Positions 56,966 to 63,014 of a stretch of DNA of 64,000 nucleotides are shown here, piece after piece. Source of the stretch: an uncultured Verrucomicrobiota bacterium (lineage in GTDB: Bacteria > Verrucomicrobiota > Verrucomicrobiia > Methylacidiphilales > CAMAQI01); assembly GCA_964555235.1 (NCBI GenBank), contig CAZKRU010000001.1, forward strand, positions 7,915 to 71,914, given 5' to 3'. The first letter of the stretch is position 1, and every line of letters starts with the position of its first letter. Below the pieces are notes generated by a model. The model saw nothing but the letters and a program-made list of their open reading frames with translations. It ran no database searches and was not told where the DNA came from. The position numbers were made by a program, and so were the translations under genes.

Positions 56966-58060
56966 TTACATTGCCTCCACGATTCTCGTTGAAGCCGAGG
57001 GCTCTACTACACTCAAAAATGGAATGATTTTGGAGTTACCATTCTTTTCCCACTCCTCCAATGAGGGACAGATCACCTCCGCTCCTTCAGAATAGGCACG
57101 ATGAACGGCTTTTGAGCCGTGTCCCAGATTTGACATCGCCATTCGCTCTGGATACCCCGAAGTCTTGGCTCGCTGCGCCCAAGCATAGCGATATGAGTGA
57201 AGCGAAACCCCTTGAATTCCAAGTCCGGCGCAGCGCTGTTTAAATTCCGTGGAACGATCCCCGGCGCGGACTGAATTCAAATACGGGAAGAAATACCCTT
57301 GCGCGGGCAGTTTCCTCACAATTCCTTCCAAACGGGGCCCTATGCGGACTTTGGCCGGAGGCTGATCCTGCCCCGCGAGCTTCTTCCGATAAATAACCAA
57401 TATGTTCTCCCTCCAATCAATCGCCTCAGCGCTTAAACGGGCCGCGTCTCCTTGCGATGCTCCAGTCTCCCAAAGAAAATCGTAATACAACCGACGCTCT
57501 GAATTTCTTTCTCGATCGATAATACGAAAATGTTCGTCCAAAGTAATGGCTCGCCTCTTCTGGTGGCGAACCTTAGGCCATAGTTTCTTGGGCAAAACAA
57601 TCTTGGGAAGCCAATCCATATCGAGAGCAAAGTTATGGATTTTTCGCAAAAACATATTCGTGGAAATTCCGCCAAGACCCAAAACCTTGAGAATGTCCTC
57701 GCCCGTCGTATCGATTAATTTTTTGTGGCGAATCAGGTCAAACGCTGCGTCTTTCATGGCCGACTTTTTTCTCATCAGTGTCAATGGACCCCCGCTTTGA
57801 GCAAACGCATCCATGACCGTCTGCCAATTCCTTTGAGTCATCTCCGGATCGGAAACGCTCAGATAGGCAATGGCAATTTTCCGATTGATGATCGGATTGG
57901 CGTGCGCTTCGTTGTGAGAATGTAAAAGACGTTTGGCTTCTTCCTTGTCGGAAGTTTCCAAACTAAATTGCTTTCGAGTCAGGCAATCCTCCAAGTAGAA
58001 ACGTCCTGACGCTCTGCGGCGATATAACCGATATTTCGACATGATGCTCCCTCTTGTCAT
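56966..58060 (-). CDS. Tyrosine recombinase/integrase
   Basis: 364 aa with box II LHSYRYAWAQRA (HxxR) and LGHGSKAVHRAY (H...Y). The box I region reads WETGASQGDAARL, so the expected Arg appears to be substituted. The gene lies 160 bp from the 3' end of tRNA-Cys. Confidence 0.85.
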   Translation of the reverse strand: MTRGSIMSKYRLYRRRASGRFYLEDCLTRKQFSLETSDKEEAKRLLHSHNEAHANPIINRKIAIAYLSVSDPEMTQRNWQTVMDAFAQSGGPLTLMRKKSAMKDAAFDLIRHKKLIDTTGEDILKVLGLGGISTNMFLRKIHNFALDMDWLPKIVLPKKLWPKVRHQKRRAITLDEHFRIIDRERNSERRLYYDFLWETGASQGDAARLSAEAIDWRENILVIYRKKLAGQDQPPAKVRIGPRLEGIVRKLPAQGYFFPYLNSVRAGDRSTEFKQRCAGLGIQGVSLHSYRYAWAQRAKTSGYPERMAMSNLGHGSKAVHRAYSEGAEVICPSLEEWEKNGNSKIIPFLSVVEPSASTRIVEAM

Positions 58061-58177: not shown

Positions 58178-58220
58178 AACCAGCTCTTGGGGGCCATTTT
58201 TCCCTCTGGATCAGAGGGAG

Positions 58221-58292
58221 AGGCGGGAGCCGGAATCGAACCGGCGCATAGGGCTTTTGCAGAGCCCGGCCTTACCACTTGGCAATCCCGCC
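58221..58292 (-). tRNA. tRNA-Cys (anticodon GCA)
   Basis: The reverse complement is GGCGGGATTGCCAAGTGGTAAGGCCGGGCTCTGCAAAAGCCCTATGCGCCGGTTCGATTCCGGCTCCCGCC plus discriminator T. It has a 7-bp acceptor stem, anticodon loop CTGCAAA and T-loop TTCGATT. CCA is not encoded. Confidence 0.9.
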
Positions 58293-58424: not shown

Positions 58425-58928
58425 ATGTCACAACGCCCCAAAATTCTATTTCTTTGTACTGGTAATTCTGCCCGTAGTATCATGGGTGAATATCTCATCC
58501 GTCAAGTGGCCCCCGGGCGATTTGACTCCTGCAGCGCCGGCTCTCAGCCGAGTGGCAAAGTCAATCCATGGGTTCAACGCTGCCTCAAAGAAAAATTCAA
58601 GATCGATACCTCCGATGCACGAAGCAAGTCTTGGAGTGAATTTAAGGATACCCATTTTGACTTTGTGATTACGGTTTGCGACAACGCCAAAGAGAGCTGC
58701 CCGATCTGGCCCGGTCAACCGATTATCGCCCATTGGGGCTCTCCAGATCCCGCTGATTTTCAAGGGACGGATGAAGAAAAGATTCACAAAATCTACGATG
58801 TCGCCCTCCAGATTCGGCGCCGCATTGAGTTGTTCTGCAGCCTCCCCATTGAAAAAATGGAACGTCTCAAACTTCAAAAAGCCATGAGTGATATTGGCAC
58901 GCCGCAGCCGCAGCCCGTGAACGCATGA
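58425..58928 (+). CDS. arsC: Arsenate reductase, LMW-PTP/thioredoxin-coupled type
   Basis: 167 aa with KILFLCTGNSARS (the CX5R P-loop) and a downstream Cys pair in VCDNAKESCP. AGGAG lies 9 nt upstream. Confidence 0.85.
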   Translation: MSQRPKILFLCTGNSARSIMGEYLIRQVAPGRFDSCSAGSQPSGKVNPWVQRCLKEKFKIDTSDARSKSWSEFKDTHFDFVITVCDNAKESCPIWPGQPIIAHWGSPDPADFQGTDEEKIHKIYDVALQIRRRIELFCSLPIEKMERLKLQKAMSDIGTPQPQPVNA

Positions 58929-59716
58929 AGCGAATGCTTCTGGGTGAATTTCTCGGCACCGCGCTTCTGGTTTTCTTTGGATGCGGATCCGTCGCTGCTG
59001 CGGTCACCACCGGAGCTCAAGTCGGAATTTTCGAAGTCGCCATTGTTTGGGGACTTGGAATTGCAATTGCGATCGGTCTCACCGCACCCCTCAGCGGAGC
59101 GCATTTAAATCCTGCCGTCACACTCGCTGCGGCGATTTGGAAGAAATTCCCTTCGCGCCTTCTCCTCCCGTATTGGTTCGCCCAGCTGACTGGGGCCTTT
59201 TTCGCGGCCATTCTCCTACATCTCATCTTTTCTGATTCGATTCATACGTTTGAAAAGAGACAGGGAGTGATTCGAGGAACTCCTGGAAGCGAAGCCAGCG
59301 CGATGGTTTACGGTGAATACTTTCCCAATCCCGAAGGAAAAGCACTGACTCCTGACTCCCGTGAACGAATGACGGCGTCACGCGCTTTTTTTGCCGAAGT
59401 CGTTGGAACGGCGCTGTTGGTTCTGGTGATTTTCGGCCTCGAATCCGGATCCCCTCCGGTCTATCCACCCGGATTTCGACCCGTCCTGATTGGACTCACG
59501 GTAACCCTTTTGATTTCCCTCTTGGGACCACTGACAATGTGTTGTCTCAATCCCGCTCGAGATCTCGGACCGCGCCTCTTTTCGAGTCTGGCTGGATGGG
59601 GATCCATTCCATTCACCGTCAATGGAAGCGGATGGCTCACTGTTTACCTGATCGCCCCGCTTTTGGGTGGAGTTTTGGGAGGAGCAATTTTCCAAAGACT
59701 CCTCGCTGAAAAGTAA
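58925..59716 (+). CDS. MIP-family aquaglyceroporin (arsenite channel candidate)
   Basis: 263 aa with two NPA boxes (HLNPAVTLA and CLNPARDLGPR). A 4-nt overlap links it to arsC. Confidence 0.88.
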   Translation: MKRMLLGEFLGTALLVFFGCGSVAAAVTTGAQVGIFEVAIVWGLGIAIAIGLTAPLSGAHLNPAVTLAAAIWKKFPSRLLLPYWFAQLTGAFFAAILLHLIFSDSIHTFEKRQGVIRGTPGSEASAMVYGEYFPNPEGKALTPDSRERMTASRAFFAEVVGTALLVLVIFGLESGSPPVYPPGFRPVLIGLTVTLLISLLGPLTMCCLNPARDLGPRLFSSLAGWGSIPFTVNGSGWLTVYLIAPLLGGVLGGAIFQRLLAEK

Positions 59717-59723
59717 TGCTGCG

Positions 59724-60113
59724 TCAAATCAACTGAAACGCGGCCTCTCTTAGTTCATTTAATGCCATCCGCATCCTCTCCAAATCCTTCAGCTCTCCTC
59801 TTGGAGTTTCACTCTCAGCACCATCAATCAACGCTCGAATGGTTTTTTGAAGACTCGCAATGTCGAGTTCCAGATGTGCATAGAAAATATAAAAAATCTC
59901 CTGCGTCCTCGGAACATCATCAGGTCGAATGGAGTCATCAACAAGAACTTGAATCTGGTCAACCGTCGTGATGATAAACCTTAAATGAGCTTCACGATTA
60001 CTGTTCGCCTCAGCATCTTCCAAGAGAAGCTCGGAAAACCCTCGAATGATTCCCAAAAAATTTCTCAACTGATGACGCCCCCGTCGATACTTCAGTTTCA
60101 ACTCCTCGCTCAT
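59724..60113 (-). CDS. Small HisKA-like (H-box) domain protein
   Basis: 129 aa. RHQLRNFLGIIRGFSELLLEDA resembles the histidine-kinase dimerisation/phosphoacceptor H-box. There is no ATPase domain. Confidence 0.45.
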   Translation of the reverse strand: MSEELKLKYRRGRHQLRNFLGIIRGFSELLLEDAEANSNREAHLRFIITTVDQIQVLVDDSIRPDDVPRTQEIFYIFYAHLELDIASLQKTIRALIDGAESETPRGELKDLERMRMALNELREAAFQLI

Positions 60114-60248
60114 TGAGCGTCACTATGCCGAGCCCTCCGCCTCGAGCAAGAAGATAGCCTCCAAAAAATTCCGAAAACTTGGCGTGAGAGGCATTCTTCC
60201 AAAGTCCTGGATTGATTCTGATTCAACTCCTGCTTAGGATACGCTCCC

Positions 60249-60863
60249 GTGATCGAACCGCCACCGGCCCCCTCCTCTCCGGAACAGGATCCCCCGGATG
60301 CGGAGCTCGTTCAACGAGCCCAGCAAGGGGATCCCTCGGCATTTGACGACCTCGTCCGTCGCTATCAGAAGCGTCTCTACAGCGTCATCCACAACATGAC
60401 ACATCACCATGCAGACACAGAGGACATCCTTTACGAAACCTTTCAGAAGGCTTACCAAAACATTCACGGATTCAAGGCCCAATCCGGATTTCACACCTGG
60501 CTCTACCGGATCGCCATTAACCGGAGTCTCAATTTTATTCGCTCCCGAAAGAATAAAATTCATATCAGCTTAAATGACGACGAAAGCGATACCGCTCCCC
60601 CTTTGGAAATCCAGGATGAAACGGCCGCTCAAGACCCGGAACAGCAGCTTGCCCTTCAAGAATTACAAAATAAATTGAACGAATCGCTCCAGAAACTGTC
60701 TGAAGAGCATAGAGCTGTGGTAAATCTTTTCGACATACAAGGCCTGAGTCACGCGGAAATCGCCAAAATTATGGACTGTTCCGAAGGAACCGTTCGCTCC
60801 CGACTCTTTTATGCACACAAACAGTTGCAAAAATCTCTCAAATCGTATATAAATCAGGACTAA
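60249..60863 (+). CDS. ECF-type sigma-70 family sigma factor
   Basis: 204 aa with a GTG start. Region 2 is FDDLVRRYQKRLYSVIHNMT...TWLYRIAINRSLNFIR. Region 4 is LSEEHRAVVNLFDIQGLSHAEIAKIMDCSEGTVRSRLFYA. Confidence 0.9.
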   Translation: MIEPPPAPSSPEQDPPDAELVQRAQQGDPSAFDDLVRRYQKRLYSVIHNMTHHHADTEDILYETFQKAYQNIHGFKAQSGFHTWLYRIAINRSLNFIRSRKNKIHISLNDDESDTAPPLEIQDETAAQDPEQQLALQELQNKLNESLQKLSEEHRAVVNLFDIQGLSHAEIAKIMDCSEGTVRSRLFYAHKQLQKSLKSYINQD

Positions 60864-60867
60864 ATCA

Positions 60868-61344
60868 ATGAACCAACCAGAATCCACCCCTTCGCTTCAG
60901 AAATTATTGGCTTACAAGCGCTTGGATATGCCAAGTTCTGCTTATTTTAACGGGGTTGTTTCCGAGTTTCATCGTCGCCAACGCGCGAATTTCCTTCAAC
61001 CAAAGTCCACTTGGTCCACTTGGATGGAATCTCTCTCAGATATAATCTTCTTTCAACCGGCCCGATGCCTTCAGATGGCGAGCGTGACCTGCGCTTTGAT
61101 CACTCTGACAGTGGTTGGACTTTCTCATGCGTGGAACTCTCCCACGGGCGACCTCTTTGCCACTCACATCCCATCGATTTCTGAAGAACACTATCTCGTT
61201 TCAAACGCTTCGGAGACCTTGGCCACTCTAGAGCTCAGCCCGAAGCTCGAAATGGTCGCCTCCCTTCAAGACTCCGATTTGGAGCGGGCTCAATACGTCT
61301 TGAACGAAGCGCCTGCCGCCTACGATGCGGTCATGGCGTTTTAA
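60868..61344 (+). CDS. Putative membrane anti-sigma factor
   Basis: 158 aa, starting 4 nt after the sigma gene, with a single TM segment (MASVTCALITLTVVGLS). No zinc-binding anti-sigma motif was seen. Confidence 0.45.
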   Translation: MNQPESTPSLQKLLAYKRLDMPSSAYFNGVVSEFHRRQRANFLQPKSTWSTWMESLSDIIFFQPARCLQMASVTCALITLTVVGLSHAWNSPTGDLFATHIPSISEEHYLVSNASETLATLELSPKLEMVASLQDSDLERAQYVLNEAPAAYDAVMAF

Positions 61345-61351
61345 TCACCGC

Positions 61352-62404
61352 ATGATCCTCTCCTTCTCACGCTCCTCGATGGTTTTAGGGGCGTGGTTTT
61401 GTCTCGGTTTCTCCGCACTCACCGCTCAAGGCGTCTTCGAGTCGATCGGGCAGGAAGTTAATAACCTCTTTGAAAAAGTAAAACCCTCCATCGTCAAAAT
61501 TCGCTCCGATAACGGTCTTCTCACGCTCGTCGGCAGCGGTTTTTATATTGATCAAAAGGGGACGATTTTAACCAGTGCCATGATTGTGGCTGACGATACC
61601 GCAACATCGGTGGAATTGGATGGAGTCAAGTTGGATGCACAGGTCATTGGAAAAGATGTTCGCAGCGGACTTGCCCTGCTCCGCGTTTATAATGATGGCA
61701 AAACTCCGTTTCTGACGTTTGGGAATTCCTCACAACTCAAACCGGCCACTGCCGTGGTCGGAGTCGGGTATCCCTACAATCTTCCCGTCGCCCCCAGCTT
61801 CGGACTCGTCGGCGGCTTTGATGTTCAATATCTCAACCGATTTTTTGCAACCACCCATATCCGCGTCAATCTCCCCATCAGCCCCGGTCAGGTCGGCGGC
61901 CCGCTCCTCAACACCAAGGGAGAAGTCATTGGGATTATGGTGATGTCCGTCGAAAATGGAAAATCCTGTTACGCCCTCCCTTCGCTCGCCGCACAAAAAA
62001 TTATCAACGAGCTCCAAACGACCGGAGCCGCACGGCAAGGCTGGGTCGGTGTCGGTGTTGCGGATCGGAACCCGGCGGAACCGAACCAAGGCGTCATGAT
62101 TTCAAAACTCTTCGATCACTCTCCTGCCCCGCAAAGCGGCCTTCAAATCGGTGACGTGCTTCTACGCATTGGCACCAAAGAAATCCGTCACCCATCCGAT
62201 GTCATCGATGTTTCATTCTTCAGTAAAGTTGGCGAGACCCTTCCAGTGGTCGTCTCTCGAAGTGGCAAGGTCATGAACTTCAAACTGGCCGTCCACGAAC
62301 GCCCGACCTCCCTCCCTGCGGTCATTCGCACGGAAAACCCGACTCCCGCCCCCTCCACGACTTCTCCGATCATTCGTCTGAATGACTCCACCCTCTCGCA
62401 CTAA
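61352..62404 (+). CDS. HtrA/DegS-like protein with PDZ domain, catalytic triad absent (pseudoprotease)
   Basis: The ORF runs 61325..62404. The preferred start is M10 (61352), giving signal peptide MILSFSRSSMVLGAWFCLGFSALTA. The trypsin-fold motifs read GSGFYIDQKGTILTSAMIV (His to Met), SGLALLRV (Asp to Gly) and ISPGQVGGPLL (Ser to Val). The PDZ region contains GLQIGDVLLRIG. Confidence 0.8.
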   Translation: MILSFSRSSMVLGAWFCLGFSALTAQGVFESIGQEVNNLFEKVKPSIVKIRSDNGLLTLVGSGFYIDQKGTILTSAMIVADDTATSVELDGVKLDAQVIGKDVRSGLALLRVYNDGKTPFLTFGNSSQLKPATAVVGVGYPYNLPVAPSFGLVGGFDVQYLNRFFATTHIRVNLPISPGQVGGPLLNTKGEVIGIMVMSVENGKSCYALPSLAAQKIINELQTTGAARQGWVGVGVADRNPAEPNQGVMISKLFDHSPAPQSGLQIGDVLLRIGTKEIRHPSDVIDVSFFSKVGETLPVVVSRSGKVMNFKLAVHERPTSLPAVIRTENPTPAPSTTSPIIRLNDSTLSH

Positions 62405-62471: not shown

Positions 62472-63014
62472 TTACGACATTCCGAGACGCTTTTTTCCCT
62501 CGGGAGAAATCATCGAAGGATTCCAGGCCGGCTCCCAAACGACTTCGACCTGTGCCTCCACAATTCCCGGCAACGTCAAAATTTTCTCGCGCGCATCCGC
62601 CGCAATCGCAGGCCCCATACCACACCCTTGCGCCGTCAGGGTCATCTTGACGTTCACTTGAATTCCTTTGTCTCCCGGATTCAACTCCAAACTGTAAATC
62701 AATCCGAGATCGACAATATTGACCGGAATTTCCGGATCGTAACAACTTTTCAACTGCTCCCAAATATCTTCTTCCTTCACCGCACCACTGGCGACGGGTG
62801 TCGAAGCGGAAACCTTTTCTTTTCCCAATGCATCTGCGTCCTGCCCGCTAATCCGATAAAGCCCCGGCTGCGTCGGAACCGTCACCGTATAGGAACCGCC
62901 AAGTCCTTGGGTAATCGTAACCGATGTTCCCGCAGGAAGTATCAACTTTTGACCGCTCGGAATTTGAATTACTTCAATTTCCCGACTCAACGCAATGGAT
63001 TCACCTGATGACAT
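62472..63014 (-). CDS. DUF59/MIP18-family Fe-S assembly protein (SufT-like)
   Basis: 180 aa with CYDPEIPVNIVDLGLIY and TLTAQGCGMG motifs. Confidence 0.8.
   Translation of the reverse strand: MSSGESIALSREIEVIQIPSGQKLILPAGTSVTITQGLGGSYTVTVPTQPGLYRISGQDADALGKEKVSASTPVASGAVKEEDIWEQLKSCYDPEIPVNIVDLGLIYSLELNPGDKGIQVNVKMTLTAQGCGMGPAIAADAREKILTLPGIVEAQVEVVWEPAWNPSMISPEGKKRLGMS

Follow-up and report, generated by a model that had tools for sequence, protein, structure and literature searches.

It is well documented that the sigma-E pathway of E. coli (sigma-E, RseA, RseB, DegS and RseP) is the textbook example of regulated proteolysis across a membrane: the PDZ domain of DegS senses the C-termini of unfolded porins, and DegS then cleaves the anti-sigma factor RseA, upon which sigma-E becomes active. 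Genes of the HtrA family are also found inside sigma factor operons, namely mucD in the algU-mucA-mucB-mucC-mucD operon of P. aeruginosa and htrA in the sigE-rseA-htrA operon of M. tuberculosis (Rv1221-1223), which has the order extracytoplasmic function (ECF) sigma factor, anti-sigma factor, HtrA-family gene. In this study, we describe a locus in a 64,000-nucleotide stretch of DNA (hereafter, the window) from an uncultured Verrucomicrobiota bacterium (Methylacidiphilales, CAMAQI01; assembly GCA_964555235.1, contig CAZKRU010000001.1, positions 7,915 to 71,914). Three plus-strand open reading frames (ORFs) lie head to tail at positions 60249-62404 of the window and encode an ECF sigma factor, an anti-sigma factor and an HtrA-family protein that lacks the catalytic triad, to which we refer as the pseudo-HtrA. 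The locus represents a phylum-wide form of such a system, in which the conserved putative sensor protease is predicted to be unable to cut.

The resemblance to the sigma-E pathway lies in the RpoE-type ECF sigma factor, in the single-pass anti-sigma factor encoded directly downstream, and in an HtrA-family periplasmic protein with one PDZ domain. However, the pseudo-HtrA is triad-less, has a cleavable signal peptide and is encoded within the operon, whereas DegS is active, membrane-anchored and encoded elsewhere. Moreover, the motif ending in F-COOH is carried here by the anti-sigma factor itself and there by the porins. The P. aeruginosa system likewise has an HtrA-family gene in the sigma operon, and its product MucD is the top structural match of the pseudo-HtrA; MucD, in contrast, is an active protease whose full-length form contains two PDZ domains. 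It also uses a C-terminal signal ending in F for a PDZ domain, since the PDZ domain of AlgW is reported to bind the C-termini of outer membrane proteins or of MucE, a dedicated small protein (PMC8545111). The PDZ-binding C-terminus is thus found there on a separate protein and not on the anti-sigma factor MucA. Structures of mycobacterial HtrA are among the Foldseek matches of the pseudo-HtrA, but that protein retains its Ser-His-Asp triad and the deposited structures are therefore S-to-A mutants. The anti-sigma factor of the mycobacterial operon is cytoplasmic.

HtrA-family members that have lost proteolysis are known from other settings. MamO of magnetotactic bacteria is a repurposed inactive HtrA-like protease which binds transition metals and has its role in the biomineralisation of magnetosomes (PMC4794232); it resembles the pseudo-HtrA in having been kept for another function, and the pseudo-HtrA gives a weak match to the NCBIfam MamO model, but MamO has no known link to a sigma factor. 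Deg/HtrA paralogues with mutated triad residues are also retained in plant and algal genomes (PMC3473262). These differ in being eukaryotic, with mostly single-residue losses or truncations and with no known operon partner or C-terminal ligand. We came across no account, in the literature searched, of a dead HtrA that is a conserved part of an ECF operon, of an anti-sigma factor with a PDZ-type tail, or of any such system in Verrucomicrobia, and HtrA, PDZ, trypsin and Verrucomicrobia all go unmentioned in the main text of the ECF reclassification paper. The dead HtrA linked to a sigma/anti-sigma pair may be regarded as a variation on the sigma-E/DegS theme.

A secreted HtrA-family protein without its triad

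Pfam recognizes a Trypsin_2 domain (2.9e-21) and one PDZ_2 domain (2e-8) in the pseudo-HtrA. Its AlphaFold2 model, computed from an alignment of 43 family members, has a mean predicted local distance difference test score (pLDDT) of 88.5, and the top Foldseek matches of the model are MucD (8k2y, the best), DegP, DegQ and DegS (E ~1e-25, TM-score ~0.7-0.8). The chymotrypsin fold and the C-terminal PDZ domain that mark the HtrA family (peptidase S1C) are both present, and the His-Asp-Ser triad is absent. In phmmer alignments to solved DegP-like, DegQ and MucD chains, TSAMIV falls under TNNHVV, DVRSGLALL under DPRSDVAVL, and PGQVGGP under PGN(S/A)GGP. The catalytic His, Asp and Ser positions are accordingly occupied by Met86, Gly115 and Val190, with the codons verified. 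These are the replacements proposed in a preliminary description of the locus from the strings TSAMIV, SGLALLRV and GQVGGPL, all three of which occur verbatim; the fold is intact, and the alignments to solved HtrAs that agree with them are secure. The same description had called the protein secreted and DegS-like. Secretion is upheld by a Sec-type signal peptide that ends in ALTA, followed by QG, and by the N-termini of 60 family members, in which the mature start GVF[DE]SIG follows directly after AxA-type sites. The likeness to DegS holds for the one-PDZ architecture but not beyond it: there is a signal peptide instead of an anchor, the scores against the DegS models are far under their cut-offs (TIGR02038, 103.7 bits against 422.95; PRK10898, 97.9 against 408), and the Do-family model TIGR02037 scores higher (153.3 bits, itself under the curated cut-off of 416.2). 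MucD, DegP and DegQ are structural matches no less than DegS.

With the pseudo-HtrA as query, 1410 homologues were retrieved at E <= 1e-10, and the triad is missing from every one of the best 120. In these close homologues the Asp position is Gly in 114 of 120, Val or Ile stands at the Ser position within SPGQ[VI]GGPL, and the His position is variable (A, T, D, L, P, S or M); the D, R and S of DxRSGxALL are invariant in the 43-sequence alignment. The survey was extended, by an exhaustive search, to representatives of clusters at 50% identity, the best 150 of which included 133 full-length proteins that were scored position by position. Triad-less proteins account for 95 of these 133 and canonical ones for 38, with the first canonical His-Asp-Ser representative at rank 54 and only 7 within the first 87. 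At least three triad-less subtypes were recognized, which combine RSG with PGQ[VI]GGP, RSG with QRGE[AG]GAP, and TN with PGEGGSP. Dead HtrAs are therefore common in this set, yet database names still say protease.

The preliminary description predicted a non-catalytic protein, with the reservation that an intact triad might lie at shifted positions. The first part is consistent with the loss of the triad in 120 of 120 close homologues. As to the reservation, no shifted triad appears in any of the alignments, and no Ser, His or Cys of the protease domain is conserved in at least 80% of the 95 triad-less representatives, by which a shifted or substitute triad was ruled out as a candidate. A cryptic protease with a different nucleophile or a shifted triad could still draw on two residues of the close family, the invariant Ser96 of RSG and the nearly invariant His160 of TTH (mature numbering). 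However, RSG is replaced by TN in other dead subfamilies and the nucleophile position is filled by Val, Ile, Gly or Ala, so that we consider such a protease very improbable. The idea of a decaying pseudogene, or of an annotation artefact, has nothing in its favor except the missing triad itself, and we give it practically no credence: the ORF is intact, the best 120 of the 1410 homologues share the conserved motifs, the fold is confidently predicted, and gene order is kept across 70 genomes. Because DxRSGxALL and PGQ[VI]GGP are conserved and the HtrA fold is predicted with confidence, the loss of the triad is, to judge from these sequences and models, an ancient and selected state under purifying selection and not decay.

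It should also be mentioned that the triad-less HtrA-like set (P0136-P0284) is large and diverse, and that some members keep the Ser without the His and Asp (for example P0186, SNS). Among the close homologues that carry a name, nearly all go by 'S1C family serine protease' or 'serine protease Do'.

The conserved operon and the tail of the anti-sigma factor

A scan of one genome per species gave 80 loci, 71 of which had enough upstream DNA. Nearly all are labelled Verrucomicrobiota, mostly Methylacidiphilales or 'subdivision 6', with Methylacidiphilum fumariolicum SolV and a complete Methylacidiphilaceae chromosome among them. The sigma factor, anti-sigma factor and pseudo-HtrA genes follow one another on one strand in 70 of the 71 loci; at the exception, L050, an unrelated gene stands upstream of the pseudo-HtrA. 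The three-gene order is also kept at three of four distant triad-less HtrAs with 28-38% identity (P0159, P0153 and P0186, each 37%), and at P0186 the middle gene encodes a recognized zf-HC2 anti-sigma factor. P0200 (28% identity) is located directly after a polyprenyl synthase gene, with no sigma pair, and the QRGE-type P0117 has the middle gene on a contig that ends before the sigma position. The tie between the HtrA-like gene and the ECF pair, which the preliminary description had made dependent on conserved neighbors, withstood this survey. Its account of a contiguous trio with small gaps or overlaps also proved accurate, as the sigma stop codon and the anti-sigma start are separated by 4 nt (TAAATCAATG) and the anti-sigma and pseudo-HtrA genes share 20 nt. 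A second possible start of the pseudo-HtrA, Met19 (61379), would give a protein of 341 aa and a gap of 34 nt after the anti-sigma gene, and is the one used in the 100% identical database entry P0001; the start at 61325 was kept as the likely one because a signal peptide needs a positively charged n-region, which the longer form provides. In many pseudo-HtrA gene calls of the family, the conserved-looking N-terminal pattern M..W[RH][FS][NK] is the +1-frame reading of the codons for the anti-sigma ending [LM]AF-stop; in the window (61325-61344), ATGGCGTTTTAA read in the +1 frame gives W-R-F-N. The overlap is therefore widespread and the 'motif' a mere by-product.

The first gene encodes an ECF sigma factor, as indicated by Pfam matches to Sigma70_r2 (3.8e-16), Sigma70_r4_2 (3.1e-14) and Sigma70_ECF, by a score of 114.6 bits against the ECF superfamily model TIGR02937 (cut-off 42.9), and by the presence of regions sigma-2 and sigma-4 only, which is the mark of the ECF group (group 4). 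The nearest equivalog models are PRK11922 and the RpoE model TIGR02939; both scores are under cut-off (154 bits against 236.15 for TIGR02939), so that the protein is RpoE-like without qualifying as an RpoE equivalog. Among solved chains the closest are 6in7_B (the best; deposited as 'RNA polymerase sigma-H factor'), 8z6g_B and E. coli sigma-E (1or7), and we take 6in7_B to be AlgU of the AlgU-MucA complex. No RseA_N, RseB or RseC was detected with Pfam and NCBIfam in the operon proteins or the conserved flanks.

The middle protein has no sequence match in Pfam, NCBIfam or the PDB, even with a profile as query. A database search with the single sequence found only itself, and a profile search retrieved 15 proteins, each of them either unnamed or called 'hypothetical'. 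Its relationship to known anti-sigma factors was revealed by the zf-HC2 anti-sigma factor at L091 (3474-3992 of that locus), which occupies the same operon slot and carries the zinc motif as HLASCAAC. A profile of 26 orthologues of the window protein aligned with residues 42-128 of the L091 protein (hhalign probability 97.2%, E 2.9e-11), a stretch which comprises the helices that follow the zinc motif and the membrane helix and includes the segment of the LQKLL motif (Table 1). Of the two features looked for in a class I (zf-HC2 / ZAS) anti-sigma factor, the HxxxCxxC zinc motif is lacking in the window protein, and homology to a recognized zf-HC2 member at the same operon position is present. 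Because the alignment covers the part of the L091 protein beyond the zinc finger, the window protein is, by profile comparison, a shortened descendant of a class I anti-sigma factor from which the HxxxCxxC part has been lost. It retains the LQKLL motif, one membrane helix and ~72 mostly poorly conserved periplasmic residues, and it is predicted to be an anti-sigma factor that binds and inhibits the cognate sigma factor. The preliminary description had seen a single-pass membrane protein, and indeed there is only one hydrophobic stretch, residues 67-85, which lies at the same place in all orthologues. The window family begins ~40 residues later than the L091 protein, and its cytoplasmic domain is naturally truncated, with two helices at most. 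At L008 (4540-5885) there are two consecutive tblastn matches to the sigma gene, and the 'anti-sigma' ORF, 261 aa in length, is extended at its N-terminus by a sigma-4-like part. Either a sigma-4/anti-sigma fusion or a duplication or frameshift could account for this arrangement in that metagenome-assembled genome (MAG).

Only in its last 17 residues is the periplasmic part well conserved. Across 85 distinct orthologues the tail follows the pattern [YF]V-x7-YD-xx-[LVIM]-A-F-COOH with fixed spacing. Phe is terminal in all 85 and, counted backwards from it, Ala is found at -1 in 71, Leu, Val, Ile or Met at -2 in 81, Asp or Glu at -5 in 82, and Tyr at -6 in 79; further upstream, Val, Leu or Ile occupies -14 in 79 and Tyr or Phe -15 in 75, with the [YF][VLI] pair complete in 74. 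In the window, the C-terminal tail that we regard as a candidate PDZ ligand is QYVLNEAPAAYDAVMAF-COOH (ending YDAVMAF). Among distinct DNA sequences of the tail, the terminal Phe is encoded by TTC in 30 and by TTT in 20, and the Asp by GAT in 23 and by GAC in 21. This synonymous variation indicates that selection acts on the protein and not on the overlapping start of the pseudo-HtrA gene. The anti-sigma tails also end in Phe (GDF, IPF, IVF, LRF) where the HtrA is only 37-38% identical. On the side of the pseudo-HtrA, the carboxylate-binding loop of the PDZ domain is canonical (GWVGV, against GWLGV of the DegP-like chain), and across the 43 family members its W and second G never vary and H, G and V hardly do. 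It is known that the DegS PDZ domain recognizes C-termini of the type hydrophobic-x-Phe-COOH, as does the PDZ domain of AlgW in the case of MucE (PMC8545111). We infer from the tail and the loop that the Phe tail of the anti-sigma factor is bound by the PDZ domain of the pseudo-HtrA.

Possible roles of the pseudo-HtrA in signalling

It seems an evenly balanced proposition, and the most economical one, that the three genes form a Verrucomicrobiota envelope signalling module in which the dead HtrA binds the Phe tail and serves as a guard or a sensor for the anti-sigma factor. The anti-sigma factor appears to have no sensor domain of its own, and the pseudo-HtrA would be its detachable periplasmic sensor or guard. 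Its PDZ domain would hold the tail ending in F-COOH in the manner in which DegS and AlgW hold peptides with this ending, and the conserved [YF]V at 14-15 residues from the C-terminus may occupy the dead substrate cleft, since the spacing recalls the distance from the PDZ1 pocket to the active site of DegP. While bound, the pseudo-HtrA would shield the short periplasmic tail from proteolysis. Competing ligands, such as free hydrophobic C-termini of unassembled envelope proteins, would release the tail, and the released anti-sigma factor would be degraded by real proteases, site-2 protease included, setting the sigma factor free. Site-1 cleavage of the anti-sigma factor by the pseudo-HtrA is not expected, because the nucleophile is missing. 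If the binding model is true, it shows that a switch driven by proteolysis can turn, in evolution, into one driven by competition, and a clear bacterial example would be added to the short list of signalling pseudo-proteases. The anti-sigma factor itself carries a C-terminal signal of a type normally presented by misfolded porins, and a three-residue tail together with one PDZ domain would provide a simple handle on envelope-stress sensing in Verrucomicrobia, the methanotrophic Methylacidiphilum included.

Several results weigh against this proposal and, the AlphaFold and covariation outcomes and the orphan copies above all, keep us from rating it higher. In a fused-chain AlphaFold2 prediction of the mature pseudo-HtrA with the last 62 anti-sigma residues, the tail was undocked and helical (pLDDT 33-55); this is a weak negative, as the run modelled a monomer from an HtrA-only alignment with no depth for the tail. 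Covariation, measured as normalised mutual information over 69 anti-sigma/HtrA pairs (effective number of sequences 39), was no higher between the tail and the PDZ or groove positions than for control positions in the cytoplasmic, membrane and linker parts. Two lineages (L050 and L090) have a pseudo-HtrA without an adjacent sigma/anti-sigma pair, and the protein can therefore exist apart from the pair. Moreover, no conserved ECF-type promoter was found upstream of the sigma gene, two-block motif discovery having returned only clade-specific sigma-70-like elements, so that autoregulation finds no support there. The suggestion in the preliminary description that the HtrA-like protein binds the anti-sigma factor directly has thus gained a lead in the invariant Phe tail and the conserved canonical PDZ loop, and has received no support from AlphaFold or covariation. 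An enrichment of tail covariation in the PDZ domain had looked like a contact signal in a first pass; the controls were equally enriched, which points to shared ancestry and says nothing of contact.

Other roles may account for the same genes. A co-transcribed effector, with the dead HtrA working as a holdase or chaperone on misfolded envelope proteins in the periplasm and not touching the anti-sigma factor, is less probable than binding to the tail but deserves serious attention: MucD is the best structural match, the peptide-binding loops are conserved, the copies at L050 and L090 do without sigma and anti-sigma neighbors, and neither AlphaFold nor covariation gives a sign of specific contact. 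DegP has an established chaperone activity that is independent of proteolysis, and MucD in algU-mucABCD and HtrA in the mycobacterial sigE-rseA-htrA operon are parallels. Such an effector, however, leaves unexplained both the gene overlap and the invariant PDZ-type Phe tail in every lineage with an adjacent pseudo-HtrA, and the pseudo-HtrA has one PDZ domain where chaperone cages of the DegP type use two. A positive regulator is improbable, in our view; here the dead subunit would act as an adaptor or activator that captures the tail and delivers it to an active protease, which could be a partner in a mixed HtrA trimer or a C-terminal processing protease. The evidence from tail, PDZ domain and synteny is the same as for guarding or sensing, and the [YF]V spacing could place a cleavage site in a neighboring active subunit, but there is no active HtrA beside the operon, in the window or as a conserved flanking gene, and only L065 has a second HtrA-like match, ~5 kb away on the other strand. 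Returning to the guard or sensor proposal, a more specific version of it, which we consider rather unlikely, has reversible binding take the place of site-1 proteolysis: the dead HtrA trimer would clamp the porin-like tail, competitors would unplug it, and the anti-sigma factor would then be a direct substrate of site-2 protease. The clamped trimer would add bulk and so keep the tiny periplasmic segment out of the site-2 protease. The PDZ domains of RseP have a size-exclusion role.

Feature coordinates, promoter region and flanking genes

The coordinates of the three genes and of their parts are collected in Table 1.

Table 1. Features of the sigma/anti-sigma/pseudo-HtrA operon in the window
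Feature	Position	Strand	Description or evidence
ECF sigma factor, RpoE/AlgU type	60249..60863	+	204 aa, GTG start; Pfam and TIGR02937 matches
Anti-sigma factor (predicted)	60868..61344	+	158 aa; short cytoplasmic domain, one transmembrane helix, ~72-aa periplasmic tail
Anti-sigma cytoplasmic motif LQKLLxxKRxxxPxxxYFxxxxxEFHRRQR, residues 10-39	60895..60984	+	Family alignments; presumed sigma-binding helices
Anti-sigma transmembrane helix, residues 67-85, CLQMASVTCALITLTVVGL	61066..61122	+	Read from the sequence
Anti-sigma periplasmic C-terminal tail, QYVLNEAPAAYDAVMAF-COOH, candidate PDZ ligand	61291..61341	+	Conservation in 85 distinct orthologues
Secreted triad-less HtrA-family protein (pseudo-HtrA)	61325..62404	+	359 aa; Trypsin_2 and PDZ_2, AlphaFold2, Foldseek
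Pseudo-HtrA signal peptide, residues 1-34, cleavage after ALTA	61325..61426	+	N-termini of 60 family members
Met86 codon, catalytic His position	61580..61582	+	Alignments to solved HtrAs
Gly115 codon, catalytic Asp position, within DxRSGxALL	61667..61669	+	Alignments to solved HtrAs
Val190 codon, catalytic Ser position, within SPGQ[VI]GGPL	61892..61894	+	Alignments to solved HtrAs
PDZ carboxylate-binding loop QGWVGVGV, residues 238-245	62036..62059	+	Aligned with rGWLGV of the DegP-like chain
PDZ domain (Pfam PDZ_2), residues 242-322	62048..62290	+	Pfam match and AlphaFold2 model

Upstream of the sigma gene there is an RpoE/AlgU-like -35/-10 pair, GAAAACTT-N17-TCCAAA, at about 60173-60203 and ~45 nt 5' of the start codon; this promoter-like pair is not conserved across the 69 other loci. 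Sigma-70-like elements of the form CTTGCC-N17-GATAAG are found upstream in some clades.

Downstream, no extra operon gene is conserved. Of the 80 loci, 48 have a polyprenyl synthase gene that precedes the sigma gene by ~100 nt, and at L090 (2950-5026; GCA_021772565.1) the dead HtrA of 28% identity noted above comes straight after a polyprenyl synthase gene with no sigma/anti-sigma genes between them, such that the adjacency of synthase and HtrA appears to be older or more stable than the sigma pair. We know of no functional link between a polyprenyl synthase and an HtrA. The synthase gene is absent from the window. Its place upstream is taken by a tyrosine-recombinase-like ORF identified by eye (56966-58060, minus strand), a tRNA-Cys (58220-58292, minus strand), an LMWPc/ArsC-like phosphatase (58425-58928) and a MIP aquaglyceroporin (58925-59716), and because of this replacement an insertion at the tRNA may have displaced the ancestral neighbor in this lineage. 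Between these and the operon, divergent to the sigma gene, is a minus-strand ORF of 129 aa (59724-60113) with a weak HisKA match (25.6 bits, cut-off 26.9) and no kinase catalytic domain, which could be a stand-alone phospho-acceptor-like helix protein or a remnant. On the other side, a convergent minus-strand gene (62472-63014) encodes a 180-aa protein with a FeS_assembly_P domain (SufT/PaaD-like), which is not conserved beside the module elsewhere.

Some of the MAGs that contain the verrucomicrobial module bear implausible names, such as Akkermansia muciniphila, Blastochloris, Aliarcobacter, Betaproteobacteria and Bacteroidetes (L001, L002, L004, L011, L022, L030, L034, L056 and others), which suggests that these are mislabelled or contaminated bins.

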